Sequence record: MT764206.1
DNA from: Escherichia phage JEP6
Reading direction: 5' to 3' (one strand)
DNA length: 64,000 nt
Shown: positions 2,243 to 51,394 of the stretch, in pieces
Numbering within the stretch: the stretch's first letter is position 1
Layout: every line of letters starts with the position of its first letter
Position numbers and translations under genes: made by a program
Notes under the pieces: model-generated
What the model was told of the DNA's origin: nothing
The model's input: the letters and a program-made list of their open reading frames with translations, nothing else
Database searches by the model: none

Positions 2243-2395
2243 TTAAACCTCAATTGATACATTCATATTTAACTTGTAACAGTAATAAACCCCAACCTAA
2301 AATAATAGTTGGAATCATAAGAGGAACCGTTACACTATAGTATATACTTATTATAACCATCAAGATTAAAAGCAATGCTGTTATAATTTTGCTTT

Positions 2396-2647
2396 TCATT
2401 CCTTCTCTCTGATGATAATTACCTGATTTGGCTGCGCAGACTTTTTAGTTTCACCCGCAATTGACCAAATAAATGTAATAAACCAACCAATAATTGACCA
2501 GTTAAACAGTAAAGATGTGAAAAAGATTCCTACTGTCGATTTTGACCCACGCATCAAGGCGATAAACCATGGAAGCATGTATATAATAATAGCCAACACG
2601 CCTGAAACTAAAACCATAAAAATTGAACCTGCTACTAAAGTTTCCAT
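2396..2647 (-). CDS. imm: Immunity to superinfection membrane protein
   Basis: 83 aa with two hydrophobic helices, at the position between 42 and 43. Confidence 0.7.
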   Translation of the reverse strand: METLVAGSIFMVLVSGVLAIIIYMLPWFIALMRGSKSTVGIFFTSLLFNWSIIGWFITFIWSIAGETKKSAQPNQVIIIREKE

Positions 2648-2654
2648 GTTTTCC

Positions 2655-3035
2655 TCACTTAGTCAAATTTTTTACACATGAATTATAAGAATTCACTACA
2701 TACTCCATCGGAGCATTTTTACCTGTACGCCATTGGTAATTATTAGCCCAATTTGCCCAAAGTTCTGCACAGTAGTTTTCAATTTTTTCTTCGCGTGTAA
2801 TTACATCCGAATTACGATATGCTTGAGCAGATTCATCTGGACGAATAGCTTCGTCAAAATTCGCCTGCATTTGTTCTACTGTCTGTTTTGGAGCTTCTTT
2901 ATAACACTTGACATTAGGATTATAAAATTTGCTTGAACAGTTTACAATTTTTCCTACATCAGACTGATTTACTACCGGTCCTTGAGCTACACAACCAGTA
3001 AGACCTAATGCAATAACCAAAATAGCGATTTTCAT
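2655..3035 (-). CDS. Predicted lipoprotein (imm.1 position)
   Basis: N-terminal MKIAILVIALGLTGC lipobox-like signal; 126 aa. Confidence 0.6.
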   Translation of the reverse strand: MKIAILVIALGLTGCVAQGPVVNQSDVGKIVNCSSKFYNPNVKCYKEAPKQTVEQMQANFDEAIRPDESAQAYRNSDVITREEKIENYCAELWANWANNYQWRTGKNAPMEYVVNSYNSCVKNLTK

Positions 3036-3045
3036 AATAATTTCC

Positions 3046-3303
3046 TCAAATACAAGTAGTAATTACTCCAGTAGTGCTTACACAGATATTACCTAATTGA
3101 ACACCCAGCGTTCCATTAGTATTCATATGAAGATTATCATCAATTTTTGTTGATACTTTACCATTCATGTGAATAACAGTATTAGATTCAATCACATTCT
3201 GAGTGTCATTTTCAATATCAATAAATGGAACAGCTGCTAATGCAACTAGAACAACTGCTAATGCAACTAAACACGCTGCTAAACAACCATAAACAATTTT
3301 CAT
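3046..3303 (-). CDS. Small secreted/membrane protein
   Basis: ATG at 3301-3303 with GGAGAAT SD; hydrophobic N-terminus; track start at 3315 is TTG. Confidence 0.5.
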   Translation of the reverse strand: MKIVYGCLAACLVALAVVLVALAAVPFIDIENDTQNVIESNTVIHMNGKVSTKIDDNLHMNTNGTLGVQLGNICVSTTGVITTCI

Positions 3304-3336
3304 TTTATTCTCCAAATCCGTATCAGTTGATAGTTG

Positions 3337-3367
3337 TATAGTACCATGGAAGAACAGGGATGTAAAC
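3337..3367 (-). promoter_or_regulatory. Early sigma70-type promoter (-35 GTTTAC, -10 box TGgTACTATA)
   Basis: Plus strand tatagtacca ... gtaaac; member of a repeated cassette. Confidence 0.6.
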
Positions 3368-3457
3368 GGTTTTGTGAAAAAATTTTTTTAATGAATTTAC
3401 AGGACCTAGAATCATCTGTTTTTCATAAGTATAGATTTATATTACTTGTATGAAAAA

Positions 3458-3473
3458 GGGACCCGGAGGTCCC
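3458..3473 (-). terminator. GC hairpin 3' of gene 43
   Basis: gggacccggaggtccc palindrome directly after the gene 43 stop codon. Confidence 0.5.
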
Positions 3474-3486
3474 TAGATTTATTCTA

Positions 3487-6261: not shown

Positions 6262-6630
6262 TTAATTTCCAATCGTATATTTAGGAACGAGTTTCCATTC
6301 ATGTTTTTGCTTAAAAGAAATAACTCGGAAGTTATTAGTTAAATCTTTCATAAAAGTTCTTTGACCAGGGACGATTTCAATCAGTCCCCAATCTTCTAAT
6401 AGCCATGCAATCGAATCACGACGAACTTCATCTTCTTCTGTCATTTCAACTTGACGACCATCCATACGAAGCATTTCTTTAAAATGAACGATATAGTATA
6501 GTCCTTTTTTCTGAAGAATATGACAGGACTGATACAGAACTTTATCTTTATTATTAGCAATTCCCATACGAGTCAAAGTTTCTTTAACTTTCAGAAAATC
6601 TTCAGGTTTTTTAAGAGTAATTTCAATCAT
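6262..6630 (-). CDS. regA: Translational repressor RegA
   Basis: 122 aa MIEITLKKPEDFLKVKETLTRMG..., recognised as RegA; position after gene 62. Confidence 0.93.
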   Translation of the reverse strand: MIEITLKKPEDFLKVKETLTRMGIANNKDKVLYQSCHILQKKGLYYIVHFKEMLRMDGRQVEMTEEDEVRRDSIAWLLEDWGLIEIVPGQRTFMKDLTNNFRVISFKQKHEWKLVPKYTIGN

Positions 6631-6631
6631 T

Positions 6632-7195
6632 TTACCATTCCAATGCTAGTTTTTTGAGTTGTTTCTGTTCTTTTACATTCTTAGTCACTTCTTTCAAAAA
6701 ATCATCCGTGACTAAACCTTTTAGTTCTTTTAATACTAAAGGAAGTTTTCCATTTTTAGTAAGAATTGATTTATAGTTAATTGCATCATTTGTATTAACT
6801 TGATACCGCTTAGCAAGTAACTTAATAATCAATACTTCGGTAGAATCTTCAACCAGTTTTGCCCATTTACCATATCTTTTACCCCGAGGAACAGCAGCCA
6901 TCAGATAATTAAAATGAGCTTCATCACTTAAACCTGATCCAATTAAATTCATAGCATATACAGCTGGCATGCATTCAGGAAATTGTGATAATGCATTCTC
7001 AACCATGTATTTTGAATAATCTTTTTGAGCAATAGAGCATTTAGTTTTATTATTGATCGCTCCAATTATTTCAAAAAATTCATTTTCAGCTTTTTCTTTA
7101 AAAGAATCAGCAGCGGATTGGACAGCTGTCCAATCTTTTGAATACCAAGCAACTTGATGCTCGTTTAATTGAATATCATCTTCAAATAAGCTCAT
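6632..7195 (-). CDS. 62: Clamp loader small subunit
   Basis: 187 aa, position between 44 and regA; 1-nt spacing to neighbours. Confidence 0.85.
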
Positions 7196-7196
7196 A

Positions 7197-8171
7197 TCAC
7201 TTCCACTGCATTTCGCATGCTAACTGAATGAAAAGATAAGCTAGATGCAATTCAGTATTAGCTGCAATACCATGATACTGATTATTTTCGCCGACAATTT
7301 CGTACATACGAATAATGCTCTGTGGAGTTACACGTGTATAGATTTCTTCGGCAAGTTTACCTACGAACCACGAATAATCAGCTGCATATTTTGGTGCTAA
7401 AGCTCTGAGCTGTTTAACATCTTTATTTTTGAGAGACTCAAGAACATCATCAATAGCACCACGATCGTTAGTAACCAGTGATAAAATACCAGCATCCAAA
7501 ACACCTTTAGATGAATAACTATCGAGCTCGCCAATAGTTTTACGAAAATCAGGAAAATTCTTTTTAACCAAAGCTGCTACAACTTTCATATCAGCTATAG
7601 CAATTCCTTCACGCTTGCAGATTTCAGTCAATCGACGAATCATCTGCTTCATCATTTCAATTTTATCTTCATCGGTCGGTTGACCGAATGTAATAACTCG
7701 GCAGCGTGACTGAAGTGGTTTAATAATACCATCAATATTGTTAGCAGTAATAATAATACTACAGTTTGAACTATAAGCTTCCATAAAGGAACGAAGATGT
7801 CGCTGAGACTCTGCTAACCCTGAACGGTCAAATTCATCAATAACGATTACTTTTTGACGACCATCAAATGAAGCTGCACTAGCAAAATTAGTCAAAGGAC
7901 CACGAACGAAATCAATTTTACAGTCTGATCCATTCACAAACATCATATCAGCATTTACATCATGGCACAATGCTTTTGCTACAGTTGTTTTACCTGTTCC
8001 TGGAGAAGGAGAATGAAGAATAATATGTGGAATCTTACCTTTACTTGTAATAGATTTAAAGGTTTCTTTATCAAAGGCGGGAAGAATACATTCATCGATA
8101 GTAGATGGACGATATTTCTGTTCAAGAATGTGTTCTTTTTCATTTACTGTAATCATAATTTCCTCATTCAA
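7197..8171 (-). CDS. 44: Clamp loader ATPase subunit (AAA+)
   Basis: Walker [11 protein letters not shown], Walker [12 protein letters not shown]-like motif. Confidence 0.93.
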
Positions 8172-8188
8172 GTTTTAGTGTAAATTTA

Positions 8189-8202
8189 AGGGCCGAAGCC
8201 CT
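8189..8202 (-). terminator. C(UUCG)G hairpin between 45 and 44
   Basis: agggccgaagccct. Confidence 0.5.
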
Positions 8203-8205
8203 CTA

Positions 8206-8892
8206 TTAAAAATCGTGGGTAGAATCAGCTTCAAGAGCTACTACATAATTCGCATGTTCACCTTCAAATTTAGCAGCACCTTGTTTACCTTTTGCCCAGA
8301 GCAGAAGTTTATAATTTCCTGGTTGCATTTTCATATTTGCCATATTGATAATGAAATTAAATGTATTTTCACCATCATAATCACCAAGAGTCAAAGAATA
8401 TTTAACACGGGTCAGAGCAGAATCTTCTACTTTATTAAAACCGTTAATTACGATTTTACCTTCTTTTACCGTGATAGCAATTGTATCAATTTGCAGACCA
8501 CGAGATACACGCAACAGTTGTTGAAGGTCTTCAGCTTTAATTTCAGTAACAACAGATGCTACCGGGAATGGAATTGGTTTATTAGGAGCAACTACTGTAC
8601 TCGGATCGGCTGCTGGCCAAAAAATTGTTGAGCGAGCATCAGCAATTTTAATATTACCATCTTCTGACTGGGAAATTTCTGCATCATCATTAACTAAAGA
8701 CAGAATACCGAGAAAACCGTTCAAATCGTAAATTGCTACATCAAAATCAATAACGTCAGAAATATTTGCTTCCGCATAAGTTGTACCATTAACTGCGCGA
8801 GTCATAATAAATTGACCGGATTTAAGCATAATACCGGAGTTAATAGTAGCGAAATTTTTCAAAATATTCAGTGTATCTTTAGACAGTTTCAT
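8206..8892 (-). CDS. 45: Sliding clamp
   Basis: 228 aa, MKLSKDTLNILKNFATINSGIM...; conserved position. Confidence 0.9.
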   Translation of the reverse strand: MKLSKDTLNILKNFATINSGIMLKSGQFIMTRAVNGTTYAEANISDVIDFDVAIYDLNGFLGILSLVNDDAEISQSEDGNIKIADARSTIFWPAADPSTVVAPNKPIPFPVASVVTEIKAEDLQQLLRVSRGLQIDTIAITVKEGKIVINGFNKVEDSALTRVKYSLTLGDYDGENTFNFIINMANMKMQPGNYKLLLWAKGKQGAAKFEGEHANYVVALEADSTHDF

Positions 8893-8920
8893 GTAATTTC
8901 CTTCAATTCAAATGAGATTT

Positions 8921-8947
8921 AATTTTATAACTAATTTAATAAAGCAA
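8921..8947 (-). promoter_or_regulatory. MotA-dependent middle promoter for gene 45 (MotA box TTGCTTTA plus -10 TAAAAT)
   Basis: Reverse complement reads ttGCTTTAttaaattagttaTAAAAT, about 40 nt upstream of the gene 45 ATG. Confidence 0.5.
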
Positions 8948-9337
8948 TTAACGATTAAAATCAGCCGCAATTGTTTCCGCAATAATTTGAGCAGCAACAA
9001 TTAGACGTTCATCTGCATTACCGCAATAATCATCTTCAAGGCGTTCACCACATGAAGTCATAATAAATTTAGCACCAGCGTTTAGAGATTCTGTAGTATG
9101 TTTGCGCATTAGTTCAATCCATTTATTACTTACTTCACGATCGATAGCTTCATAATACGCATGACGAGCAGGTGCAGATTTAATTTTGTTCTGAATAACT
9201 TCCATTGCGTTATCAGAAAGAGACAAAACCCATGCTCGACGAATTTTATTTTGGTTTTGTGGATTTGATTCAGAACGCACGTGTTTTGGCTGAATATCTT
9301 TTACATCAACAGTATAATTCACAGTAATTTTAGTCAT
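8948..9337 (-). CDS. rpbA: RNA polymerase-binding protein RpbA
   Basis: 129 aa ORF directly upstream of gene 45, matching T4 order. Confidence 0.65.
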
Positions 9338-9346
9338 AATACACCT

Positions 9347-9535
9347 TTAGTCATAATAATCAGTAACAGTCCAAGCTTCATTTCTATTGGACATTATTTT
9401 TGTATATTCTGATTTAAATGCATTCCTAAGCATAGATTCAGTAACTATATGCTCTTCGTTAGAAAAATTATTTCTCAGAATATATCGTTTTATTTCAGGA
9501 ATAGTTAATAGATGCTGTCCAGTTGAATATTCCAT
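9347..9535 (-). CDS. Hypothetical protein (45.2 position)
   Basis: 62 aa ORF, tightly packed in the operon. Confidence 0.45.
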   Translation of the reverse strand: MEYSTGQHLLTIPEIKRYILRNNFSNEEHIVTESMLRNAFKSEYTKIMSNRNEAWTVTDYYD

Positions 9536-9590
9536 GTTTTTCCTCCATAGAGATTATACTCTAATAAATTAAAGCATAATCTCTTATAAA

Positions 9591-11273
9591 TTAAACCATT
9601 ACAGTAAATCGACCGACTTTCTTCATTTGAAGATGCTGACCATATTCTTGCGGGTCATGGTCTTTATGCGAAATTATAAAAACATTAGTGTTTTTCATTG
9701 AATTTATAATATTAGCTACACCTTTAATACCTTCGGCATCAAATGACCCATCAAACACTTCATCAAGAATTAATGTACTAATACTAACACCAGATACGAT
9801 AGAAGCAATATCACGCCAAGTAAATAAAAGAGCAATATCGATTCGTGCCTTTTCGCCTTCACTAAATGAAGCATAACTAAAATCTTCACGACCACGGGAT
9901 TTAATTGTCTCATTAAATTCTTCATCTAATGTAAACACATAATCCGCTTCCATTATTTTAAGATAATGGTTAATCTGCTTATTAAATAATGGAATGTACT
10001 TTTTAATAATAGCACCTTTAATACCAGAATCTTTGAGCATATCAGTCAAAATTCCTCGGTGGTATTTTTCCATTACTAAATTAGTTTTTGTCTTAACAAT
10101 TTTATCAAGTTCTTCTTGAAGCAGTGCTATTTCATCAGCATGGTCAATAAACTCAGAAGATGCTTTTTCTATAGCCGCTTTAACCTTTTTAGCTTTATCT
10201 ACTGCTGCGATCAGAGATTGCTTTTTATTGCGAATATCATTTGCCAACGACTGTTGGGTTTTAATATTATCTCGGTATTCATCAACAAGAACTTTTAAAT
10301 TATCACGGTGTGTTGAAAGCTGTTCAAACGAATGCGTACATTCAGAAACTTTATCTTTAATTTTAGAAACAACTTTATCACCGGAACTTAATTGTGACAA
10401 ACAGGTTGGACATAATCCACCTTCGTGATACATATTAATGACTTTATTATACGAGTCAATTTTTGATTTAATTAAAACTGCTTCTTGACCGATTTTATTA
10501 AATGCATCAGTCGGGTCTTCATCTAAAACAATATTAACTAATCTTTCGTTAGCTTCTTCTATTTCCGATTTTAGCGTTCTAGCTTCTTTTGCCAAATCAT
10601 CATACATATTTTGAAGACGAGTAAGATTGTCACCAGACAATTTTTTCTGGCGTTCAACATTATCGTTATATATTTTAATTTGTTGGATAATACTATCTTT
10701 TTTAACATCAAGCACTTGGTTTTGTGAGTTTAATTCACGTATTAGTGCTTTATTAAGCTTATCCATTTCAGCTAATGTTCCTACCTCAAGCAGGTCTTCC
10801 ACAAGCTTTCTTCGCGCAGGGGTCGACAAACCCATGAAAGGGGTATACCCTGCTGTACCAAGGACAACAATCTGCTTGAAACTGGCATATGACATTCCGA
10901 TAAGCTGTTCAAATTCTGCTTGGAAATCTTTACTGCTGGCAGATTCATTAAGACGTGTACCGTTAACGGTGATTTCGAAAACGTTTGGTTTTTGTCCTCT
11001 TTTGATATAGTACTTTTTCTCATCATATTCCATCCACAGTTCAACTAAAAGTTCTTTCTTATTTGTGCTGTTTATTAATTGACCTTTCTTTACATCACGA
11101 AATGGCTTGCCAAAAAGCCCAAATGTGATGGCTTCTAGCATAGTAGACTTACCACCGCCATTTCGTCCAGTAATAAGAGTTTTTTGAACCTTATCTAATT
11201 GAATGTCAATCCCATTTTGACCAACTGACATTATATTTTTATATTTTACTCTATTAAGTTTAAAATTCTTCAC
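9591..11273 (-). CDS. 46: Recombination endonuclease subunit (Rad50/SbcC-like ATPase)
   Basis: Walker A GRNGGGKST, long coiled coil with CPTC zinc hook, D-loop LILDEVFDG. Confidence 0.92.
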   Translation of the reverse strand: MKNFKLNRVKYKNIMSVGQNGIDIQLDKVQKTLITGRNGGGKSTMLEAITFGLFGKPFRDVKKGQLINSTNKKELLVELWMEYDEKKYYIKRGQKPNVFEITVNGTRLNESASSKDFQAEFEQLIGMSYASFKQIVVLGTAGYTPFMGLSTPARRKLVEDLLEVGTLAEMDKLNKALIRELNSQNQVLDVKKDSIIQQIKIYNDNVERQKKLSGDNLTRLQNMYDDLAKEARTLKSEIEEANERLVNIVLDEDPTDAFNKIGQEAVLIKSKIDSYNKVINMYHEGGLCPTCLSQLSSGDKVVSKIKDKVSECTHSFEQLSTHRDNLKVLVDEYRDNIKTQQSLANDIRNKKQSLIAAVDKAKKVKAAIEKASSEFIDHADEIALLQEELDKIVKTKTNLVMEKYHRGILTDMLKDSGIKGAIIKKYIPLFNKQINHYLKIMEADYVFTLDEEFNETIKSRGREDFSYASFSEGEKARIDIALLFTWRDIASIVSGVSISTLILDEVFDGSFDAEGIKGVANIINSMKNTNVFIISHKDHDPQEYGQHLQMKKVGRFTVMV

Positions 11274-37815: not shown

Positions 37816-38033
37816 GTAACCTTTAAGCAGTATTCTTCTACATGCTGTTTACGACCTTTCTTATCAATAAAGGTATATTCAACGAATGTTCCAATGTAGT
37901 CTTTATCTACATCATGCGGACTATTAATTGGACATTTAGTACGGCAAATGCGTTCCCATTGACGAATAATTACTGCCTTATTCTTTGGGTCATATGGATG
38001 TGGATAATGTATATTCATAATAATGGTTCCCAA
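37806..38033 (-). CDS. Hypothetical protein
   Basis: 75 aa ORF. Confidence 0.45.
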   Translation of the reverse strand: MGTIIMNIHYPHPYDPKNKAVIIRQWERICRTKCPINSPHDVDKDYIGTFVEYTFIDKKGRKQHVEEYCLKVTWL

Positions 38034-38482
38034 TCAACAATCACAATTTCTAATTTAGAGGAATATGTATCTAAAATCCCCTCAATAATATCCCAGTTCC
38101 CTTTACCTATGCCTGCACCAATCCTAGGCATATAGATTGTAGGTTTAATCAGTTTATTTTCACCAAACTCATTTAATTCTAACATACAATTCATTAAAGC
38201 GAAATACTCAAAATTTGGCCCTGGTTGAAATTGAGTATAAAGATTAAAGCAGTAAGCTTTATGAGTCCTAAAGTATTTTTCATAGACTGAATAAGAACCA
38301 AGTTTAGTTACATCACCCCATTCAGTCTGTAGTTTATCAGCTTCCAGAATTTTAGGGAAAGCTTTGGTTAATTGACCTGCGACTCCAGCTTTCATCGTAT
38401 GAAAACAATTGCATCCATGCGCAATATTTTTACCTTCAGCGAAAAGGGCGACAATATCGCCCTTGATATATTTTACAATCAT
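38015..38482 (-). CDS. Macrodomain protein (TARG1/DarG-like ADP-ribose hydrolase fold)
   Basis: GDIVALFAEGKNIAHGCNC...AGVAGQL and YMPRIGAGIGKGNW resemble the TARG1/C6orf130 motifs (SLAHC...GAGIA; MPRIGCGLD). Confidence 0.6.
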   Translation of the reverse strand: MIVKYIKGDIVALFAEGKNIAHGCNCFHTMKAGVAGQLTKAFPKILEADKLQTEWGDVTKLGSYSVYEKYFRTHKAYCFNLYTQFQPGPNFEYFALMNCMLELNEFGENKLIKPTIYMPRIGAGIGKGNWDIIEGILDTYSSKLEIVIVDWEPLL

Positions 38483-38826
38483 TTAGTACTCAATCCTCGA
38501 TTATAAGAATCTACCAAACGGTCAACCATTGAATGACAAGCGGCTTTATCTTTCTCCTCCGCAACTGAACATTCTAAGGTATTCCACTTTTTAGCATATC
38601 GTTTTAATAATGTATCGTTTTTGTATCTGCTTGATTTATCTCTTTCTCCATCTTTATATGCATATATTAATTTCTGCGCAAATTCAGCTTGGCACGCTTT
38701 ATTTTTCCCACAATAATCTGCCGCAGTGCGGTTTACATATTCTCTAATTTCAGTATATGATGTATCTGCTGACGCAGAAGCAGAAAATGAAATTAATCCT
38801 ATACATAAAACCAAAATTTTAGTCAT
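38479..38826 (-). CDS. Secreted Cys-containing protein (vs position by order)
   Basis: Signal peptide MTKILVLCIGLISFSASASA; 115 aa. Confidence 0.5.
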   Translation of the reverse strand: MTKILVLCIGLISFSASASADTSYTEIREYVNRTAADYCGKNKACQAEFAQKLIYAYKDGERDKSSRYKNDTLLKRYAKKWNTLECSVAEEKDKAACHSMVDRLVDSYNRGLSTK

Positions 38827-38992
38827 TTACTATTTCCAAAAGTTTATTATTTTTAAGGTAATTAGCCTTTTCTAGGACTTCAGAAGCATATTTAGAACCA
38901 GCTTTAACATTCCATCCTGAATTATAAGAGGATATTGCTTTTCTTATATCGCCCTTATGTATATTTAACCAATAAGAAAGTTCAATGTACGC

Positions 38993-39364
38993 TCAGGAAG
39001 CTGAATTGGATCGTTTATTCAACATTCTTTTTATTTCAGCATCGGTCATATTATAACCAAGTTCCTTAACTCTTGCTCGCATAGTAGGCAAATAATTTTG
39101 GAACATTCCGTAGGCGTGATGCTTTGGTTTAGATTTTAAATTAACTCCGCCAGAGCTTTCTTGCCATAAAATAGCAGCCATTATATGACCTAATCCGCTC
39201 TTGTGGATATTTTTGTGTGTTTTATATTTTCCATCCTTAGAAAATTGTTCCCCGAATTGATACGCGTAACGCATGTTATCGAGTTGGACATTACTGAAAG
39301 TATGCTCGGAGCTATGTGCCATCATTGAAATGGCCAATAGACCAGCGAGTAGTGCTTTTCTCAT
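38993..39364 (-). CDS. Secreted protein with lytic-transglycosylase-like motifs
   Basis: Signal peptide; LWQESSGG ... AYGMFQ (SLT-like E-S / G-x-M-Q motifs). Confidence 0.45.
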   Translation of the reverse strand: MRKALLAGLLAISMMAHSSEHTFSNVQLDNMRYAYQFGEQFSKDGKYKTHKNIHKSGLGHIMAAILWQESSGGVNLKSKPKHHAYGMFQNYLPTMRARVKELGYNMTDAEIKRMLNKRSNSAS

Positions 39365-39371
39365 GCTTACC

Positions 39372-39833
39372 TCATTGAGTTTTAATTACTGCTTTAGAAG
39401 CCTTTCCTGGTAAACGACGACTGTTGATAATTGCCATCCTACATTGAAGTGACGGGTCTTTGAACTTCGCGTTAGGTTTACAAACTGTAAATCCAAGCCA
39501 AAGATTTCCATCTGTGATTTCTAGACGTCCAGGACGATATTCAACCCCATCAATAAAATCCTCGTCAATGTCAGGACGCGGAGGCATACTCAGGAATTCA
39601 TTAACTTCTAAAACATGGTCTTTTATTTTATGGAATAATTCAAAAACATATGTCTCATCAATCTCCCGTTGAATTGCGCGATCAAGAAGATGTTGAGAAT
39701 ATTTTAGATGAAACGATGAGACCCCTGCTGCTTTTGATGCCTCACGAATCTCATTGTTAATTTGACGAAACTCCGACTCAAAGTGACGACGAAGCTTATT
39801 TCGACGGATAAAAACTTCTGTGTTGATAGTCAT
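39372..39833 (-). CDS. regB: Endoribonuclease RegB
   Basis: 153 aa at the expected position; recognised N-terminus MTINTEVFIRRNKLRRHFESEF. Confidence 0.8.
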   Translation of the reverse strand: MTINTEVFIRRNKLRRHFESEFRQINNEIREASKAAGVSSFHLKYSQHLLDRAIQREIDETYVFELFHKIKDHVLEVNEFLSMPPRPDIDEDFIDGVEYRPGRLEITDGNLWLGFTVCKPNAKFKDPSLQCRMAIINSRRLPGKASKAVIKTQ

Positions 39834-39857
39834 GTTATTCTCCTCTTAACTGATAGA

Positions 39858-39890
39858 AAAATTATACCACAGTCAAGAGGAAAAGTAAAC
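39858..39890 (-). promoter_or_regulatory. Early promoter upstream of regB
   Basis: aaattatacca ... gtaaac. Confidence 0.5.
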
Positions 39891-39892
39891 AA

Positions 39893-40171
39893 TTATTCTT
39901 TAAATCTAATCAATTTATTCATAGACTTTGAAACTTCTGCACGAACCTCATGTAGATTTTTGAGCTGTTCAAGACGCTGCTCATAGTAAGCAATTTCATC
40001 TTCTTCGAGACAGTCCTGTGAATCTTCTTTAAGATAACGTGCATAGTCCTGGAAAGCGTTACGAACTACTTCCTGGAAGTCATCAAGACTTTGAATTTTC
40101 TTAGGAGCAACAGATACACGACGAGGGGCAGTATAATACTCATAACCAAACCCTGCGCTTAATTGAGCCAT
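39893..40171 (-). CDS. Hypothetical protein (vs.3 position)
   Basis: ATG at 40171 overlapping the upstream stop; the track start at 40213 is less likely. Confidence 0.45.
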
Positions 40172-40473
40172 TAGTATTTTTCCTCTGGTTGGAACACAGC
40201 ACGGCAAGCCCACATACTGGCTTCTTTGAGTTTCGTTTTAGCAATAGTTAACTGATCGAGGCTTTCGGCGTAATTCTTCGCGAGTTCACAGTCTTCACAA
40301 TTATCTAGTGCTTCCCAGAATTCATCGTATAAAGCATCAAAGATAAGTCCTAAACGAACTTCAGCGTCTTTGATAGCATTCACTTTACCGATTTTCTTTT
40401 CAGTATGCGGCTTATAACCCTTAATATCTTCAATCATATTTGACTTCCTCACCAGTACATAAATCATATTCAA
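40171..40473 (-). CDS. Hypothetical protein at the vs.4 position; candidate anti-CBASS Acb2 by synteny
   Basis: About 90-100 aa, third ORF upstream of regB; identity by map position only. Confidence 0.4.
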
Positions 40474-40651
40474 CTAAACGAATAGGTTCATGAATGCCAT
40501 ATCCTTGAACAGAAATTTCTGTAGTAGGATAAATTCCATCAATATCGCCCATATTCCACGCTTCATTAAATTGCTGTTCGCCTGAATTACTAAACCATTC
40601 GGCGAAAGCATTTAGCACATCTTCAGAACCTTCAATAATTATCTTTGCCAT
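40430..40651 (-). CDS. Hypothetical acidic protein
   Basis: 73 aa ORF. Confidence 0.45.
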   Translation of the reverse strand: MAKIIIEGSEDVLNAFAEWFSNSGEQQFNEAWNMGDIDGIYPTTEISVQGYGIHEPIRLVEYDLCTGEEVKYD

Positions 40652-41013
40652 TACAAACTCTCGGTAAAGGTACGAGCGATAACGTCGCGCTGCTGTTCCG
40701 GAGTCAGAGAGTTAAAGCGAACTGCATAACCGGATACACGGATGGTCAGCTGCGGATATTTTTCCGGATGCTTAACTGCATCTTCCAGAGTTTCACGACG
40801 CAGAACGTTAACGTTCAGGTGTTGACCACCTTCAATTTTAACTGTAGGCTGTTGCTCAATTTCAATTTCACGGGCATGCAAACCGTAGAAAATTTCTGGG
40901 TCTACAAAAGAGTCCTCTTTAAAGGTTTTAGAAACGATAATTCGTGCTTGAATACCATCTTCAAAATAAATAGTACCTTTATGTGTGCCTTCAAGAATTT
41001 GATATGCTTTCAT
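40651..41013 (-). CDS. Autonomous glycyl-radical cofactor (GrcA/YfiD-like)
   Basis: C-terminal [25 protein letters not shown] glycyl-radical motif; 120 aa. Confidence 0.75.
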
Positions 41014-41020
41014 ATAAACC

Positions 41021-41350
41021 TCAATTAGAAAATAAATTTATCCAAGATTGTTCTTTAATTAAAAATGGCTCAGAATCATATGCCATTAAACTCTGTGTGA
41101 TTAGTCCTTTAAAAGGCCCATCAATAAATTCCATGGTAAAATATGGAATTTTATTCATTAGCCGTGCATTAGGAGCAGTACACAAAACTCTGCATCCTTT
41201 GAATACACCTTTTTGTAATTTGTATTGCTTAGGATAAAATTCACTTAAAATGTTATTTTTTGCCAAAATTTCAAAATGATTCACCAATTTATTTTTAATA
41301 GTTTTTGGCGAAAAATAAAGATATTCGAAAAGCTGAGTGTCTGTCATCAT
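41021..41350 (-). CDS. Hypothetical protein
   Basis: ATG at 41350 overlaps the upstream stop (ATGATGA). Confidence 0.45.
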
Positions 41351-41886
41351 TGCATTCCGATTACGAAAAACTGCGGACGAGTAATACCACCAATACAACA
41401 TTTAATATTACAGCAGCAGTGTACAGTGTCAATGTGGACACTATAAATCTTATCCATATCAGGAGATTTGACAGGCTCATCAATTATATATAAAATTCGC
41501 GAAAGCGATAAACCTCTGAACTTGCTTCCTTTATTACCAATAAAACTGCGCACAGAATCAGTAAATAAACGAAAACGTATATCATCATTAGAATAACGCG
41601 AAAATTCCTTTTTAATGTTATTTGCAGAAATTTTAGCGTAAGCTGAAGTATTAGAAAGAACAATAACCGTTCCGCCATCATATAACCAATTAGCAGCAAA
41701 GTTAGTCACAGCAATTGATTTACCTGATTGACGTCCACCATCTAGTCGAAGTGTGCAATACTGTTTAAGTAAGTCTTCAAATGGTGGGACATAACCGTTC
41801 TTACAAATTTCTTCTACTCTAGCATCAGAATGGTGTGTAAAAGCATTCATCAGGGATAGATAAGGTCCAGTTAAAAATGTTCTCAT
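41347..41886 (-). CDS. Hypothetical protein occupying the denV-side position
   Basis: 179 aa; DGGRQSGKS P-loop-like segment; Cys-rich tail; no similarity to endonuclease V. Confidence 0.45.
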   Translation of the reverse strand: MRTFLTGPYLSLMNAFTHHSDARVEEICKNGYVPPFEDLLKQYCTLRLDGGRQSGKSIAVTNFAANWLYDGGTVIVLSNTSAYAKISANNIKKEFSRYSNDDIRFRLFTDSVRSFIGNKGSKFRGLSLSRILYIIDEPVKSPDMDKIYSVHIDTVHCCCNIKCCIGGITRPQFFVIGMQ

Positions 41887-41966
41887 TTAGTTTCTCTTTT
41901 AGGTTGGGCCATTCCGTGGCGCATGAATTGTCCATTTCTGTATTTACCCCTCCAAGTAATTATGAA

Positions 41967-41997
41967 TATACTATCACAATTCTAGGAGAAAGTAAAC
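41967..41997 (-). promoter_or_regulatory. Early promoter cassette copy
   Basis: tatactatca ... gtaaac. Confidence 0.5.
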
Positions 41998-41999
41998 TG

Positions 42000-42302
42000 T
42001 TATTTACCTTTAATTACTTTAGCTGCTTCGATAGCCGCTTGCTGAAGGTCATCCATAGACATACCGAATTTAGAAGCAAAGTTATCAATTTTCTTTTCGA
42101 CAGCATTCAAAGGCTTGGCCTGTTTACCTTCATTAGCGCCAGGAAGAGCGAGAATACGCTCTTTGTCAATATAAAGGCTTACAAGTTTCTTACGGTCTTT
42201 ATCGGACAAATCATGAAATGAATGGGCCTTTTTATTTATAGCGGCTTCTAATTTACCTGCACTCACTCGCGCTTCAGTAATAAATTCTTGATATGTTTTC
42301 AT
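42000..42302 (-). CDS. Internal head protein (IPII/IPIII-like) with capsid targeting sequence
   Basis: MKTYQEFITEARVSAGKLEA... CTS with L-x-E cleavage context; 100 aa. Confidence 0.7.
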   Translation of the reverse strand: MKTYQEFITEARVSAGKLEAAINKKAHSFHDLSDKDRKKLVSLYIDKERILALPGANEGKQAKPLNAVEKKIDNFASKFGMSMDDLQQAAIEAAKVIKGK

Positions 42303-42357
42303 ATGTTTCCTTTAAATGTAAATATTTTAATTGGTAATTGACTGTTTAAGTAACTGT

Positions 42358-42391
42358 GAATATATTATCACAATTCTAAGAGAAAGTAAAC
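42358..42391 (-). promoter_or_regulatory. Early promoter cassette copy
   Basis: tatattatca ... gtaaac. Confidence 0.5.
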
Positions 42392-42396
42392 TGCTT

Positions 42397-42921
<525 letters not shown>

Positions 42922-43362
42922 TTAAAAGAGGTTGTTCATTATTCGGTAAAGTGAAGGACCCATCACATATTGCCACTGAGTACGAGGAATAAGAGCAAAA
43001 GCGTCCATCTCTGGAATCATAACACCATCTTTATTTTCAAAATAAGACTCGCAATGGCAATTTCTAAACATCTCATGCTCTACTGGAATCGTATAATAAA
43101 ATAGCTGTAAGTCTTTATTACTAGAATATTTAAATACACCTAGGTCTTCTAGAAGGTCTGGATTATAATTGCTAAAACCGGTCTCTTCTAAGCATTCTCT
43201 TTTTGCAGCTTCCAGTGCATTCAAATCAGAACTTTCTACACGGCCCTTTGGAATATCCCAGCGGTGTGCCATCATTCCAGGCTTACGAGAACCAGTAACC
43301 CGACCCATAAATAAATCTTTATCTTCTGTCATAAAGATAATACCAGCTGATAAGGTTTTCAT
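42922..43362 (-). CDS. nudE: Nudix hydrolase
   Basis: Nudix box GRVESSDLNALEAAKRECLEETG. Confidence 0.8.
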   Translation of the reverse strand: MKTLSAGIIFMTEDKDLFMGRVTGSRKPGMMAHRWDIPKGRVESSDLNALEAAKRECLEETGFSNYNPDLLEDLGVFKYSSNKDLQLFYYTIPVEHEMFRNCHCESYFENKDGVMIPEMDAFALIPRTQWQYVMGPSLYRIMNNLF

Positions 43363-43847
43363 TTTAATTTCCTGCATTCAGTGATAAAGTTATTTAAATT
43401 TTGAGCATATTTCTTTTCATCAAAAATCTTTTGCTGTCTGCGTAAACGCCATGGCATTTCAATGAACATACGCCATATTCCTGATAATACTGCTGCTGTA
43501 AAAATATTAACAAGTATAGTTAAAAGAACCCAATCTCCTATTCTGTCCATTGGATTTTTTATAAAAAAGTAAAATACGAACGATGATATAGGAAGACTAA
43601 TGATATACCACAGAATAACCTTCTTATCTGTGAACCAATCGGCATTCGTTAACTTAGCGCGACCATTTTGAATACACACGAATTTATCATCTGTTACAGT
43701 AAATGGTTTAGCTGCTTGATATCCCATTCTAAACTCCCTAATTAATCGTTTCTTTGTATCTTCGGAACAACCATTCCAATCAACTCTATCAACTGAAATG
43801 CCATCATCCCCATCATCTAAATCATACCAGCGAGTTTTTAAAATCAT
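43359..43847 (-). CDS. Membrane protein
   Basis: 162 aa with two TM segments. Confidence 0.5.
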   Translation of the reverse strand: MILKTRWYDLDDGDDGISVDRVDWNGCSEDTKKRLIREFRMGYQAAKPFTVTDDKFVCIQNGRAKLTNADWFTDKKVILWYIISLPISSFVFYFFIKNPMDRIGDWVLLTILVNIFTAAVLSGIWRMFIEMPWRLRRQQKIFDEKKYAQNLNNFITECRKLK

Positions 43848-44218
43848 TTAATTTTCCTGCAATCGCTCACAAACTCTTTCATTGATTCATTTTCAATATA
43901 AGACATGTAGCTATTATATTCTTTTAATTGTATTTTGTAATCCTTTTTTCTTTGCCAATTTATTTTAAAATTATCATAATGAAAATATAACATAGTACCA
44001 AAGAATGAAAACAATGAAATAATTTTAGTATAACAAAGCTCACTCCAAACTTCTATTATATCTATTATACCGCTGACGTTACTACGGATGTTTAAAATAA
44101 GACAGTCAATTAACAATCCAAAAAGACTACCTGCAAGAGCTGCAAATGCTGATACGGCAAGAATTAATAGTGCCTCTGGAAACGAATATTTAACTTTATT
44201 TAGTTTTGGCTTTTGCAT
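43844..44218 (-). CDS. Membrane protein
   Basis: 124 aa with hydrophobic helices. Confidence 0.5.
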   Translation of the reverse strand: MQKPKLNKVKYSFPEALLILAVSAFAALAGSLFGLLIDCLILNIRSNVSGIIDIIEVWSELCYTKIISLFSFFGTMLYFHYDNFKINWQRKKDYKIQLKEYNSYMSYIENESMKEFVSDCRKIK

Positions 44219-44613
44219 CGTGATTCCTTAACAAATTTCATAATTTCATCAAATTCATACGCAGCAAGTTTAAGCTGATATTCCTTTTTAATCTTTTTAC
44301 ACTGTGCTTTCCAATCACGTACACGTTTACGATAATGTCTTCCTTGATACCAATATCCTATCCAATTTACAGGTACTAATAAAAGTGGAACTATTAATGG
44401 AAGAATTAGCATTAACACAAGTATTTCGCCAGAATCAATATCAGTCATAACATCTAAAACGCCTCCAATAATCAATAGAATTACAAATGATATGAGTATA
44501 ACAGGACCTATTAATACATCAGTAGAAATTAGCTGGCGCTTTAATTCATACTTTAAGGGTTTACTTGGAAGATACATTGATGGTTTTGACATATTCTCTA
44601 CATTCCTTAACAA
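44200..44613 (-). CDS. Membrane protein
   Basis: 137 aa with two TM helices. Confidence 0.5.
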   Translation of the reverse strand: MLRNVENMSKPSMYLPSKPLKYELKRQLISTDVLIGPVILISFVILLIIGGVLDVMTDIDSGEILVLMLILPLIVPLLLVPVNWIGYWYQGRHYRKRVRDWKAQCKKIKKEYQLKLAAYEFDEIMKFVKESRCKSQN

Positions 44614-45175
44614 ATTTTTCTAGTAATAAATCACTTTCAAAATTAGGATTTTCCACGAATTTATCAAAAAGATCATCAACAATATTCAAGATATTTCTTT
44701 TACTAAGAATACGTTTATTTTCATGCTTCGTTTCAGAATCAACTATAAGAGTAAAGAAATATTTCTTTCCCTGAAATTTTACTGTAGTATCAATATAGAA
44801 TAAATTTGACTTTTGTAAGTTACGTTTAAACCATGCGTCACTTAAACTATAAATGCCGAGATAATCATAATCGTCGTTTAAATAACATACTGTCCATTCA
44901 GGAGAAATGAAATCAGTAAATTCAACATCAAAATCACACGTCAATAAATGAATTGATTCAATACTGTTAATAAGTATTCCAGGACGTATTAAAGACTTTT
45001 TACCTCTGGAAAATCTTCCAGAAAGACTTTCATTAGTTTCATATGAAGAACCCCAATAGTAATTACGTCCTTCTGCCATGCGTTTAAGAGCATTTAGTAA
45101 TTGGTCTGGAACATCAACCTGTCTTTGGAACTCTTCAAACATTGAATTGAAATCACTTTGCATTTTCATTTTCAT
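44561..45175 (-). CDS. Hypothetical protein
   Basis: 204 aa ORF. Confidence 0.5.
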   Translation of the reverse strand: MKMKMQSDFNSMFEEFQRQVDVPDQLLNALKRMAEGRNYYWGSSYETNESLSGRFSRGKKSLIRPGILINSIESIHLLTCDFDVEFTDFISPEWTVCYLNDDYDYLGIYSLSDAWFKRNLQKSNLFYIDTTVKFQGKKYFFTLIVDSETKHENKRILSKRNILNIVDDLFDKFVENPNFESDLLLEKFVKECREYVKTINVSSK

Positions 45176-45195
45176 TCCTATTTACTCCAAGTAAT

Positions 45196-45211
45196 AGGGG
45201 CCGAAGCCCCT
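45196..45211 (-). terminator. C(UUCG)G hairpin
   Basis: aggggccgaagcccct. Confidence 0.55.
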
Positions 45212-45216
45212 TATCA

Positions 45217-45810
45217 TTATTTCAGAGAATTAATGTATTCCTGAACATCGGCAGAGGTAGTTTCAACCCCGGAAATATTACCGTTAAAGGTTTCAACTCG
45301 AGCAAGAGTATCTTCAATATCAACCTTAGTCAGTGCTGCAATTTCAACTACATCATCGGCAGTACTAATTCCAAGGGCATTTGCTGCACGAGTTTCACGG
45401 ATATATTCCAATTTAACTGCAAGTTCTTGACGAGCATCATCTAACTCAACTACTTTCTTAGCGATTTCAATTCGCATTTCAGCATAACCGTCAGCCTTAG
45501 TAGTCAACTGCTCAGCTGTTCGACGATATAGTAAACCGAGTTTAGCATGCATTGTTACATCTTGACCTTCGGAAAGAAGTTTACGAATTTCACGCTCTTT
45601 TGATTCGGCTTGTCGATTCTTTTCGACAATAAGTTCACGAATACGTTTTTCTTCATTAATAGATTTAACAGAAGCAGTTTTTAGATCTTTAATTTTATCA
45701 AGTAGTTTTGCTGCTGCAGCAGTATACTGTTCTTCAACAGATAAATTTTTAGCCATAGCAGAACCAAGTTTAGTGCGAATAAATTCAACAATTTTCTTCA
45801 GTGTGTTCAT
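45217..45810 (-). CDS. Hypothetical coiled-coil protein
   Basis: 197 aa ORF. Confidence 0.5.
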
Positions 45811-45850
45811 AGTATTTCCTTAGGTTGATTAAAAATAAAATCTGTGGAAG

Positions 45851-46766: not shown

Positions 46767-46902
46767 GTTTTGTGAAAAATTTTTTAAAAAGTTTTAGGGA
46801 ATTCTAGGGCAGGGAGGGGCAATTAAAAGATAGGATAATATATTATAAAGGGTAGAAACTAAATGATGTCTAGAGAGGCCTGGAAAGGCCTAGATACCAA
46901 AA

Positions 46903-46926
46903 AGCCCCAACCTTTTGGCTAGGGCT
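46903..46926 (-). terminator. Rho-independent terminator (10-bp stem, AAAA loop, U tract)
   Basis: agccccaaccttttggctagggct followed on the transcript by UUUUU. Confidence 0.6.
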
Positions 46927-46933
46927 AAGAATG

Positions 46934-47407
46934 TTATTTGATTTGTTTAGCAGACCAAATGCGGTCTTTAATAATTTTTTGGATGTCTTCAACATACTCA
47001 AGAGAGTGAGCATGTGGGTTATCTTTGAAACTATAAGCACGAGCTAGCTTTTGGCCTTCAGTTTTGATTACTAAAAGCTCTTTAAGGATAGCTTCATATT
47101 TAGCGATAATTCCTTTAACAATATTTTTTTCTTGTGCAGCTTTAGGATCTGCTTTAGGCGCAGGTTTACCCGAAGCCTTTGCAAAAGCAGCGCCAGTAGC
47201 AACTAGACTTTTCCAGGCCATACTAACTGCATTTCCCGTAAATCCTTCTGCTTTCATGTCGCGAGCAAATTGGAATCGTGATTCGTCAGAAGCATCTTTA
47301 TAGGAATATTTACCCGCTGCAATGGCTGCTTTTGCGACAGCTTGAATTTCGGTGCTAGATGCTTCATTTAACACCGCTTCATTTAAAAATTGAGCATATG
47401 ATTTCAT
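46934..47407 (-). CDS. Internal-protein-like protein with N-terminal capsid targeting sequence
   Basis: MKSYAQFLNEA... resembles the IP CTS (MKTYQEFI.E); Ala/Lys-rich; 157 aa. Confidence 0.55.
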   Translation of the reverse strand: MKSYAQFLNEAVLNEASSTEIQAVAKAAIAAGKYSYKDASDESRFQFARDMKAEGFTGNAVSMAWKSLVATGAAFAKASGKPAPKADPKAAQEKNIVKGIIAKYEAILKELLVIKTEGQKLARAYSFKDNPHAHSLEYVEDIQKIIKDRIWSAKQIK

Positions 47408-47461
47408 CTTATTTCCTGTTTTAATTCGTGGATTTAATATACTACTATATTTATACTAAAA

Positions 47462-47485
47462 AGCCCCAACCTTTCGGTCGGGGCT
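47462..47485 (-). terminator. Rho-independent terminator (GAAA loop), near-identical repeat of 46903-46926
   Basis: agccccaacctttcggtcggggct followed by U tract. Confidence 0.6.
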
Positions 47486-47489
47486 AAGC

Positions 47490-47790
47490 CTTGCGGCAAC
47501 CTTGTCGGGGTTCCACCTGCTAAGGCAAGTGTTTGTACGAAACGCCGGGATTCGAACCCGGTTATTAAGTAGTTGACGCTACTCAATATTTTTAAAAGGC
47601 CATATCTCGACCATATCCGAACGTTCCGTCAAAAACGCTACTCGGCTTATGGCAAAGATATTTCCTCGAATCGATAATTCGGTGCGCCGTTTCTGCTGTG
47701 ATGTAAGAGGGCATCAATAAACGTAAAGATTATTAACGCAATTCCTTACTCAGGGAACATCAGTCCGACGACTTACCGGTAGCGACCCGG
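47490..47790 (-). ncRNA. Small stable RNA region (rnaC/rnaD-like) with tRNA-like 3' domain
   Basis: No ORF; T-arm-like CCGGGTTCGAATCCCGG on the transcript at about 47546-47565; ends at a terminator. Confidence 0.4.
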
Positions 47791-48243: not shown

Positions 48244-48909
48244 TTAAAATTTCATTTTTCGACCTTTAAACCATCCTTCTGGAATTGGGTCAGTTTTCTT
48301 AATACGTTTAGAAACTTTTTCATCTAATGAATGAATCCACATCATACCAAATTGGGAATTCTTTTCGCCCTGTTGGTGTTTATTTCTGGCGTGAGATTCT
48401 TTCATTTTATTAATAGTTTCAGGAGTATGATGCTTATTTAAAAATCTGCTATTATTTAAAAATTTTTCCCTGTATTCAGGAGTTGACCACAAGCGTTTAA
48501 ATACATTTGAACCATGTTTACGATATTTTTCTTGAAGTAAAATATCATTTTTAAAACGTGACTTAAACGATTTAGCTCCTTTTAAACTAGCGTCTTTCTT
48601 CTGGTTTAGCATCCCAGGAATATTTATATGATCCCATCCACCTTCACCACCTAATTTCAAATTATAAACATCAGGGCGCTTTAAAAACTCTTCAGTCACA
48701 ATATTCTTTTCTGACTCAAACATAGAGGTTTTATCGTCAAAGAACTCTAATATTTCTTTAGAAAAATTTTCTATACCATACTTATCTTGGGCTCTTTTTA
48801 ATAATTTACCAGAACCCATATATCCATCATCTAAATTTTCGGTAGAATGCACACCAATATAAATTTTATTATTAATTTTATTTGTTATTTTATAAGTGTA
48901 ATGGAACAT
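48244..48909 (-). CDS. segB: GIY-YIG homing endonuclease (SegB-like) in the tRNA cluster
   Basis: HYTYKITNKINNKIYIGV GIY-YIG motif; 221 aa. Confidence 0.8.
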   Translation of the reverse strand: MFHYTYKITNKINNKIYIGVHSTENLDDGYMGSGKLLKRAQDKYGIENFSKEILEFFDDKTSMFESEKNIVTEEFLKRPDVYNLKLGGEGGWDHINIPGMLNQKKDASLKGAKSFKSRFKNDILLQEKYRKHGSNVFKRLWSTPEYREKFLNNSRFLNKHHTPETINKMKESHARNKHQQGEKNSQFGMMWIHSLDEKVSKRIKKTDPIPEGWFKGRKMKF

Positions 48910-49453: not shown

Positions 49454-50062
49454 TTATTTATTACGTGAAAAAGACTGTTCTATCAATTCTGGACACTTTC
49501 GTTCTATCCATTTTCTAGCTTTTTGTGGGCTTATACCTATTATTTTAGCAGCTTTACTAACCCATCCAAATTTAGAATAATCGATTTTAACTAATTCTTC
49601 GTAAATTTCATCAGTTAAAATCTTTTCATTAATATTTACCAGTAAATGATATAATTTGTTATCATTAGCAATTTTAATGAATCTTTTATAGTTTCCGCCT
49701 TTACTTAAACCTAATGAAGTAATTGCAGATGATATAGTAGCCGAATTTAATAATGCGTTTAAAATTTCTTCATCACTAACATTATAACGCTTTTTATTAT
49801 TTTTAATATTTTTACCAGCAAAAGTATCAGTTTGCGAGTGACAGTTTGGACATAATAATCTTAAATTTGATTTAAGATGATTTTTGTTATTTCCATCAAT
49901 ATGGTCTAATTGCAGAACAATATGCTTATTTTGCCATTTTGAAATTTTACAAATTGCACACTCATATGGAAAAATATTTTCTTTTATTATTTTGTCTTTC
50001 AGCTTTCCTGTGCTAAAATTTGGGTGTTTTCCTTCAAAAATTTCAGCTAATTTAGTATCCAT
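49454..50062 (-). CDS. HNH homing endonuclease
   Basis: LQLDHIDGNNKNHLKSNLRLLCPNCH HNH motif; ATG at 50062. Confidence 0.75.
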   Translation of the reverse strand: MDTKLAEIFEGKHPNFSTGKLKDKIIKENIFPYECAICKISKWQNKHIVLQLDHIDGNNKNHLKSNLRLLCPNCHSQTDTFAGKNIKNNKKRYNVSDEEILNALLNSATISSAITSLGLSKGGNYKRFIKIANDNKLYHLLVNINEKILTDEIYEELVKIDYSKFGWVSKAAKIIGISPQKARKWIERKCPELIEQSFSRNK

Positions 50063-50172
50063 AATATGATTCCCAATTATTAACAAAGGCTCTCAAACAA
50101 GAACCCTTGATGATAGAGGGTATTAATCAGTGCGGTACGAGTTAATAATAACAAATAATTCTTAAAGCATAT

Positions 50173-51106: not shown

Positions 51107-51394
51107 TTACAAAAGATTTTTAGCAATAATTTTGAGCTGAGCTACTGAAATATGCTTGGCTTTAAACAACGCAGTTTCTTCAGCAGGAGAGATAACGATT
51201 GTAGCACCATCCTTTTTAGCAGACCACCCATCGCCTAGGTAAACAGTACCTTTGATTTCTTCGCCATCAACCAGACTAATCATTGGTTTACCTTCTCGTC
51301 CTTTATTTGCTTTAATAACTTCAGAAGTAAGAGTAGCTTCGGTAATGGTAGAAACCGGGGTAGTTGTAGAAGTAAACTCTTTGAAAGTTTTCAT
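51107..51394 (-). CDS. ipI: Internal protein I (injected anti-restriction protein) precursor
   Basis: 95 aa MKTFKEFTSTTTPVSTITEATLTSE... with CTS and L-x-E cleavage site. Confidence 0.85.
   Translation of the reverse strand: MKTFKEFTSTTTPVSTITEATLTSEVIKANKGREGKPMISLVDGEEIKGTVYLGDGWSAKKDGATIVISPAEETALFKAKHISVAQLKIIAKNLL

Follow-up and report, generated by a model that had tools for sequence, protein, structure and literature searches.

Absence of denV and ipIII at the vs.8-e internal-protein locus of Escherichia phage JEP6

Introduction

The interval between vs.8 and the lysozyme gene e is the textbook hypervariable internal-protein (IP) region of the T-even phages. In the annotated T4 record the genes follow in the order vs.7, vs.8, denV, ipII, ipIII, e and nudE, such that the order denV, ipII, ipIII before e, which a preliminary description of the DNA considered here had given for T4, is the right one. 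The arrangement varies widely among relatives. Phage BF15 carries vs.8-ipII-ipIII followed by two further IP genes (86 and 93 aa) and e, without denV; Mosigvirus AV116 has vs.8-ipII, an IP gene of 84 aa, denV, an IP gene of 93 aa and e; Mosigvirus HX01 has vs.8-ipII-denV, then IP fragments and e; T2, RB32 and SG1 share the simple order vs.8-Ip4-e, again without denV; and in T6 regB is followed by e directly. Two positions of denV are thus known, one in the vs.8-ipII interval of T4, the other in the ipII-e interval of AV116 and HX01.

One question then is what allows such variation. Elements resembling the promoter/stem-loop elements termed PeSLs, and derived from T4 early promoters, have been described at two T-even IP loci and proposed to drive the shuffling of IP genes (Arbiol 2010, PMC2839356), and shuffling by promoter/stem-loop elements at two IP loci is likewise proposed in Comeau 2014 (PMC4122927); where they deal with the IP-locus elements, both papers cite Repoila 1994. 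Recombination or excision at such elements has been demonstrated only for the PeSLs of RB49 and phi1 (PMC2839356). As to the function of the variable genes, Ip1, Ip2 and Ip3 act against different GmrSD type IV restriction enzymes, blocking those of CT596, ECOR21/BrxU and ECOR17, respectively, and both T2 and T6 are without Ip2 and Ip3 (Silas 2025, PMC12373910). Here we examine the corresponding locus of phage JEP6.

Organisation of the vs.8-e interval in JEP6

The DNA analysed, hereafter the window, is a 64-kb stretch of Escherichia phage JEP6 (MT764206.1), which amounts to about 38% of a genome of roughly 168 kb and leaves some 100 kb outside. It belongs to a Tequatrovirus, that is, a T4-like coliphage, and its closest relative in the phage collection is about 96% identical over 25 kb. 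The window begins within uvsX, reaches the gene 7 region and includes the whole tk-vs-e-tRNA-ipI segment. Around the locus, 4 kb of the window correspond to 5.2 kb of T4 at 95-96% identity, some 1.2 kb of the T4 locus being missing; the flanking genes are 92-97% identical to those of T4 at the nucleotide level, and T4 NudE finds its counterpart at 96% identity (tblastn).

The order of genes in the locus is vs.7, vs.8 (179 aa), ipII (100 aa) and e, all on the minus strand. The first of these, vs.7 (41021..41350; 109 aa plus stop), is matched by T4 Vs.7 at 100% over 109 aa (tblastn, 41350..41024); in the mechanical listing of open reading frames (ORFs) it appears as 126 aa, starting from an upstream ATG at 41401. 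With vs.8 it shares a 4-nt overlap, as it does in T4, and the synteny on the downstream side of vs.7 is kept.

The 179-aa ORF (41347..41886) is vs.8 itself. It is 96% identical to residues 38-219 of T4 Vs.8 (tblastn) and matches phrog_1488 over its full length (E=2.7e-79, positions 2-177 of 177), together with a weak match to the terminase ATPase family phrog_2 (E=1.5e-5) and the P-loop-like motifs GRQSGKS and ILYIIDEP. No Pfam family was matched, and a PDB sequence search with the ORF gave nothing significant (best E=0.07). The preliminary description had taken this ORF to lie between the distal vs genes and the internal protein and to lack similarity to endonuclease V; the latter part stands, whereas the ORF does not occupy the slot of denV, and the matches to T4 Vs.8 and phrog_1488 lead us to reject it as a replacement of denV. 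The same 179-aa form is annotated in BF15, AV116, HX01, SG1 and F26. In T4 the annotated product is 219 aa long with a 40-residue N-terminal extension, which is out of frame in the window: residues 18-35 of T4 Vs.8 match in another reading frame than residues 38-219, because the two sequences differ in length by 7 nt. A 13-codon upstream ORF, read directly from the sequence (41883..41924, minus strand), ends in a TGA that overlaps the vs.8 start codon (ATGA) and is, to judge by the sequence, a remnant of the T4 Vs.8 extension.

Next in order is ipII (42000..42302), encoding the internal (injected) head protein II. Its product aligns with T4 IPII at 93% identity over 100 of 100 aa (tblastn) and matches phrog_7857 'internal virion protein' from end to end (E=4.5e-55, positions 1-100 of 100), and its N-terminus, MKTYQEFITEA, reads as an intact capsid-targeting sequence with a predicted gp21 protease site (MKTYQEFIxE, then A). 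The spacer that separates ipII from e (42303..42396) is exactly 94 nt long, as had been stated at the outset for the gap between the 100-aa internal protein and lysozyme. The e gene (42397..42885) encodes a T4-type lysozyme of 162 aa, 96% identical to T4 gp e over 162 aa (tblastn), which ends in WDAYK in the window and in WDAYKNL in T4.

The second classical IP locus is likewise present, with ipI on the minus strand at 51107..51394; its product matches Pfam PF11634 (IPI_T4, E=5.4e-52) and phrog_4363, and early-promoter motifs flank the gene at 51454-51425 and 51088-51059. Judged from the 64-kb window, the phage thus appears to keep Ip1 and Ip2 and to be without Ip3. A 157-aa ORF at 46934-47407 was considered as a relocated Ip4 and rejected, since it has no similarity to Ip4 of RB32.

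Absence of denV and ipIII

Neither denV nor ipIII is found at its T4 position. A tblastn search with T4 DenV, a protein of about 138 aa, against all six frames of the 64-kb window returned no homologue (best E=3.8), nor did the Mosigvirus DenV allele against the same window (best E=9.1), and the Mosigvirus position of the gene, between ipII and e, is also empty, being taken up by the 94 nt of the spacer. With T4 IPIII only residues 1-27 found a match in the 64-kb window, on ipII (E=0.01), these residues being the shared capsid-targeting N-terminus. Both statements of the preliminary description, that the two genes are missing where T4 has them (blastn and tblastn against T4) and that no denV-like product is encoded anywhere in the window, are therefore borne out by the searches, and so is its analogy with T2 and T6, the complete genomes of which contain no DenV homologue.

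Three complete genomes, each assembled from annotated chunks, were searched with T4 DenV and IPIII, namely those of Manna, T2 and T6; the Mosigvirus DenV allele was also run against T2 and T6 and, separately, against Manna. The complete genome of Manna (171,141 bp) yielded neither a DenV (best E=4.8) nor an IPIII homologue, and the same holds for those of T2 (163,904 bp) and T6 (168,706 bp). Taking Manna, T2 and T6 as proxies for the genome as a whole, JEP6 most likely has no pyrimidine-dimer glycosylase of any kind. Such a condition would be far from exceptional: rough, evenly sampled hit lists contain about 350 Tequatrovirus records with DenV and about 430 with Vs.8, which suggests, as a crude estimate with wide uncertainty, that denV is missing from about one in five Tequatrovirus records.

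Promoter/stem-loop cassettes and junctions

A 51-nt direct repeat, the two copies of which are 88% identical, brackets ipII. The first copy (41954..42004), between ipII and vs.8, and the second (42348..42398), between e and ipII, constitute two promoter/stem-loop cassettes, both on the minus strand. The promoter of cassette 1 extends over 41997-41968, with GTTTAC at 41997-41992 and TAGTAT at 41973-41968, and that of cassette 2, at 42391-42362, likewise conforms to the early-promoter pattern. This pattern, GTTTAC-N18-TANNAT, is found 17 times in the window, where 0.23 would be expected by chance, and always on the minus strand; four of the 17 sites are the two cassettes of the locus and the two sites flanking ipI. 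A generic scan for sigma-70 promoters and terminators was uninformative (8 sites, 9.6 expected). The -10 region of cassette 1 is covered by a stem-loop of -17.7 kcal/mol (z=-4.3); the stem-loop of cassette 2 is weak (-9.4 kcal/mol, z=-1.7), with 13 of 200 shuffled sequences folding as well, and the T4 copy between ipIII and ipII forms a perfect 14-bp stem (z=-6.4).

Side-by-side reading of the intergenic regions reveals, in front of each gene of the locus, a T4 early-promoter element (GTTTAC, 18 nt, TAnnAT) and a conserved leader, and the IP genes additionally share the conserved start MKTYQEF. The promoter and leader elements, accompanied by a stem-loop that is weak in cassette 2, and the capsid-targeting N-terminus are the same in T4 and in the window, although two of the three T4 cassettes, those of denV and ipIII, are missing from the latter. 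A promoter and leader of its own accompany denV in the T4 and in the Mosigvirus position alike, the mark of a self-contained cassette.

The alignment with T4 (blastn) consists of three collinear blocks, in which window positions 38000-41949, 41984-42417 and 42271-45827 correspond to positions 1001-4956, 5495-5917 and 6478-10016, respectively, of the T4 locus (L001). What is missing relative to T4 is, on the vs.8 side, about 540 bp comprising denV and the first 50 nt of the T4 vs.8 ORF and, on the e side, some 0.6-0.7 kb comprising ipIII with one spacer. The second and third blocks overlap because the single e-ipII spacer of the window is homologous both to the e-ipIII and to the ipIII-ipII spacer of T4. 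The break on the vs.8 side falls at about 41949/41950, where an IP-type promoter, fused at ...ACTTGGAG/GGGTAAATACAG to about codon 17 of the T4 vs.8 ORF, replaces the first 17 or so codons of that ORF.

The direction of change on the e side is less obvious. Directly downstream of ipIII, T4 keeps a 21-27 nt copy of the window-type 3' end of e (ACTTGGGACGCTTA-AATAAAAGCAGTTTAC), and this relic makes an insertion in T4 look as plausible as a deletion in the window; to judge from it, ipIII may have been inserted into an e-ipII arrangement in T4, rather than deleted from the window. An exact 50-mer across the e-ipII junction of the window found no match in IMG/VR.

Comparison with related phages

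The order found in the window is shared by two other phages, Manna (Salmonella phage, PP987310) and vB_Eco_F26 (Escherichia phage, OP870145), which have an identical succession of vs.7, vs.8, ipII (100 aa), e and nudE and are about 95% identical to the window over the 1.1-kb region. They differ from it in detail: the spacer is not quite the same, their e gene encodes 164 aa ending in KNL instead of 162 aa, and in Manna vs.8 reads through as 195 aa instead of 179.

Other relatives share one side of the arrangement. The vs.8-ipII junction of AV116 is that of the window, at 100% over 131 nt, and so is that of BF15, with identity throughout the displayed 190 nt. A query spanning this junction is covered to at least 80% in about 80 records, some of them with an insertion. 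On the other side of ipII, however, where the window has a 94-nt spacer, AV116 and HX01 have denV together with additional IP cassettes, and BF15 has ipIII and two more IP cassettes. Relative to T4, BF15 and AV116 the junctions map inside the 51-nt repeat or directly beside it.

The classical phages that are without denV arrived at other junctions. In T2, RB32 and SG1 the place of denV-ipII-ipIII is taken by Ip4, and the region upstream of vs.8 is intact, unlike that of the window; in T2 and RB32 Ip4 is joined just past the position of the T4 denV stop. In T6 everything from vs.3 to ipIII is missing. Both T2 and T6 resemble the window in having neither a DenV nor an IPIII homologue, but they are without ipII, which the window keeps. 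Loci without denV therefore display at least three different junction types, those of the window, of T2/RB32 and of T6, and this diversity suggests that they arose independently.

In this context the JEP6 locus is very probably just what it appears to be, a correctly observed and natural minimal version of the hyperplastic IP locus of the T-even phages, comprising vs.8, one ipII cassette and e, from which the denV and ipIII units are absent. The same architecture, like the hypervariability of the locus, is already documented, and the arrangement is ordinary, known variation.

Mechanistically, each accessory gene, be it denV, ipII, ipIII, Ip4 or another IP gene, would be a self-contained unit in which the gene is combined with a T4 early promoter of its own, an AT-rich stem-loop spanning the -10 region and a leader of conserved sequence, to which the IP units would add the capsid-targeting sequence, shared over about the first ten codons. 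Units would be added, removed and reordered as these repeated elements recombine, either within one genome or between co-infecting relatives. On the e side, the spacer of the window is what would be expected to remain after an equal-length homologous exchange between two T4-type spacers; on the vs.8 side, fusion to an IP-type promoter would preserve the conserved 179-aa core of Vs.8, now preceded by a short upstream ORF. Whereas the repeat and the positions of the junctions are observed directly, it is from these positions that we infer recombination at the cassettes.

A more far-reaching reading, to which we give somewhat less than even chances, is that denV represents a further mobile cassette, promoter and gene together, of an integron-like array otherwise made up of genes for injected anti-restriction proteins, the window being a minimal one-cassette 'empty site' between two recombination-competent promoter/stem-loop elements. 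The case for the mobility of denV is that two different places in the array are known for it, to both of which it brings its promoter and leader.

Alternative explanations

Since the window displays little more than a third of the genome, and since denV is mobile within the locus, its positions in T4 and in the Mosigvirus genomes being different, one might suppose that denV, ipIII or both have been relocated to a part of the genome beyond the window. This is very unlikely. Across the collection DenV is essentially a single-copy protein, occurring at 1125 places in 1119 records, and in the records inspected, as in the sampled Tequatrovirus hits numbered from rIIA, the gene lies at about 62-65 kb, in the vs.8-e interval; the window, running from uvsX to gene 7, covers the entire usual denV region; and the three complete genomes without denV at the locus, those of Manna, T2 and T6, have none anywhere. 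A supposition of slightly better, though still poor, standing is that a non-homologous gene nearby maintains UV repair, such that the loss of denV would be without phenotype. Several neighbouring ORFs are indeed without an assigned function, and RefSeq names the vs.3 homologue of HX01 a 'pyrimidine dimer DNA glycosylase'. Yet Pfam detects no repair domain either in the neighbouring ORFs, which yield known T4 families only (RegB, the Acb2/Tad1 domain in Vs.4 and a glycyl-radical domain in Vs.6), or in the HX01 protein so labelled, which we accordingly reject as a cryptic repair gene. Moreover, each ORF between regB and e is also present in T4 alongside denV, and therefore nothing extra has been added in the window; and T2, which is also without denV, is by classical account about twice as UV-sensitive as T4.

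The remaining explanation, to our minds the least likely of all, is that the arrangement is an artefact, produced either by collapse of the assembly across the promoter cassettes or by the sequencing of a laboratory deletion strain of T4 (ip2/ip3 or denV). Direct repeats are present at the cassettes, and engineered T4 strains from which ip2 and ip3 have been deleted do exist (PMC12373910). The repeats, however, at 51 nt and 88% identity, are too short and too diverged to swallow some 0.6 kb of unique sequence; the region is a mosaic that diverges from T4 by 3-8%, which argues against a laboratory T4 derivative; and both the junctions and the architecture are common to independent isolates. A natural, minimal vs.8-ipII-e locus thus accounts best for the window.

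Predicted consequences

Two phenotypes can be predicted for a phage with such a locus, a T2-like sensitivity to UV and a susceptibility to the ECOR17-type GmrSD enzyme with the protection due to Ip1 and Ip2 retained. The UV genetics of the T4 v gene reportedly goes back to Streisinger in 1956 and Harm in 1963. On the strength of this classical work, and because a pyrimidine-dimer glycosylase would be missing, UV is expected to inactivate JEP6 with about the same ease as T2 or a T4 v mutant; a full-text literature search for the UV sensitivity of T2 and T6 found nothing usable. Similarly, since ipI and ipII are present and ipIII is absent, JEP6 particles should inject Ip1 and Ip2, but not Ip3, and should be restricted specifically by the ECOR17-type GmrS1/GmrSD2 enzyme. 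Both predictions may be relevant wherever phages are used under exposure to UV or against wild E. coli with type IV restriction.

Past the annotation of JEP6 the finding has little significance, adding one more case of the well-documented shuffling of cassettes at a T-even IP locus. If, however, the different junction types of the loci without denV represent independent losses, this would suggest that selection on denV in the enteric T-even phages is weak or depends on the niche.

Variation in the interval between vs.8 and e

In T4 (locus record L001, 5890-5927) the sequence immediately downstream of ipIII retains a relic, 21-27 nt in length, of an e 3' end of the type found in the JEP6 window (compared with window 42397-42425). 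Its location beside ipIII suggests an origin for the T4 order in which recombination at the end of e brought the ipIII cassette into a locus that had only e and ipII side by side. In BF15 (L003 4185-4896) and the Mosigvirus AV116 (L012 3052-3306 and 3791-4072) the region between ipII and e contains more small ORFs, of 84-93 aa, whose N-termini, MKMYQEFIVE and MKTYSEFLSE, are of the capsid-targeting kind. The 93-aa gene of this type overlaps the e stop codon (ATGA), an overlap suggestive of translational coupling to lysozyme.

The flank of this interval formed by vs.8 is itself variable, the 5' end of the gene being hypervariable among relatives (window 41883-41950; T4 L001 4880-5045; T2 L014 20143-20789). 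The annotated length of Vs.8 is 219 aa in T4, 195 aa in Manna and 189 aa in RB32; in the window and in BF15 the product is 179 aa long and a short ORF precedes the gene. The T2 copy (L014 20143-20789) is broken across three reading frames and has the appearance of a pseudogene. Motifs resembling Walker A (GRQSGKS) and Walker B (ILYIIDEP) lie in the conserved core of Vs.8, which also matches the terminase ATPase weakly.

Other vs genes

The window also contains an intact minus-strand gene for a Vs.4 homologue (40171-40473), the product of which is assigned by Pfam to the Acb2/Tad1 hairpin domain of the anti-CBASS nucleotide sponges (E=3.9e-19). In the Mosigvirus HX01 the vs.3 homologue (L013 600-899) is named 'pyrimidine dimer DNA glycosylase' in RefSeq; since a Pfam search of this homologue gave no support for the label and HX01 has its genuine denV at a distance of 2.3 kb, the name is probably an annotation error.

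A candidate internal protein outside the classical loci

Two minus-strand ORFs in the tRNA region look like homing endonucleases: one of 221 aa (48244-48909), where close relatives annotate such an enzyme, and one of 210 aa (49454-50086) with an HNH-like motif, HIDGNNKNH...CPNCH.

A 157-aa ORF, also on the minus strand (46934-47407; flanks inspected over 46900-47500), is a homologue of RB32ORF132c and belongs to phrog_2280. It is distinct from Ip4, the internal protein gene of T2, RB32 and SG1, as it has no similarity to RB32 Ip4. A late-promoter-like TATAAATA lies nearby at 47455-47448, and near-identical terminator-like hairpins (GGTTGGGGCTTTTT) stand one on each side of the ORF, the homologue of which is described in the RB51 record as 'flanked by 34 bp imperfect direct repeat'. 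The N-terminus, MKSYAQFLNE followed by A, closely resembles the capsid-targeting sequence and gp21 cleavage site of the internal proteins, and is kept by the homologues. The ORF may encode an unrecognised injected internal protein, situated outside both classical internal protein loci.
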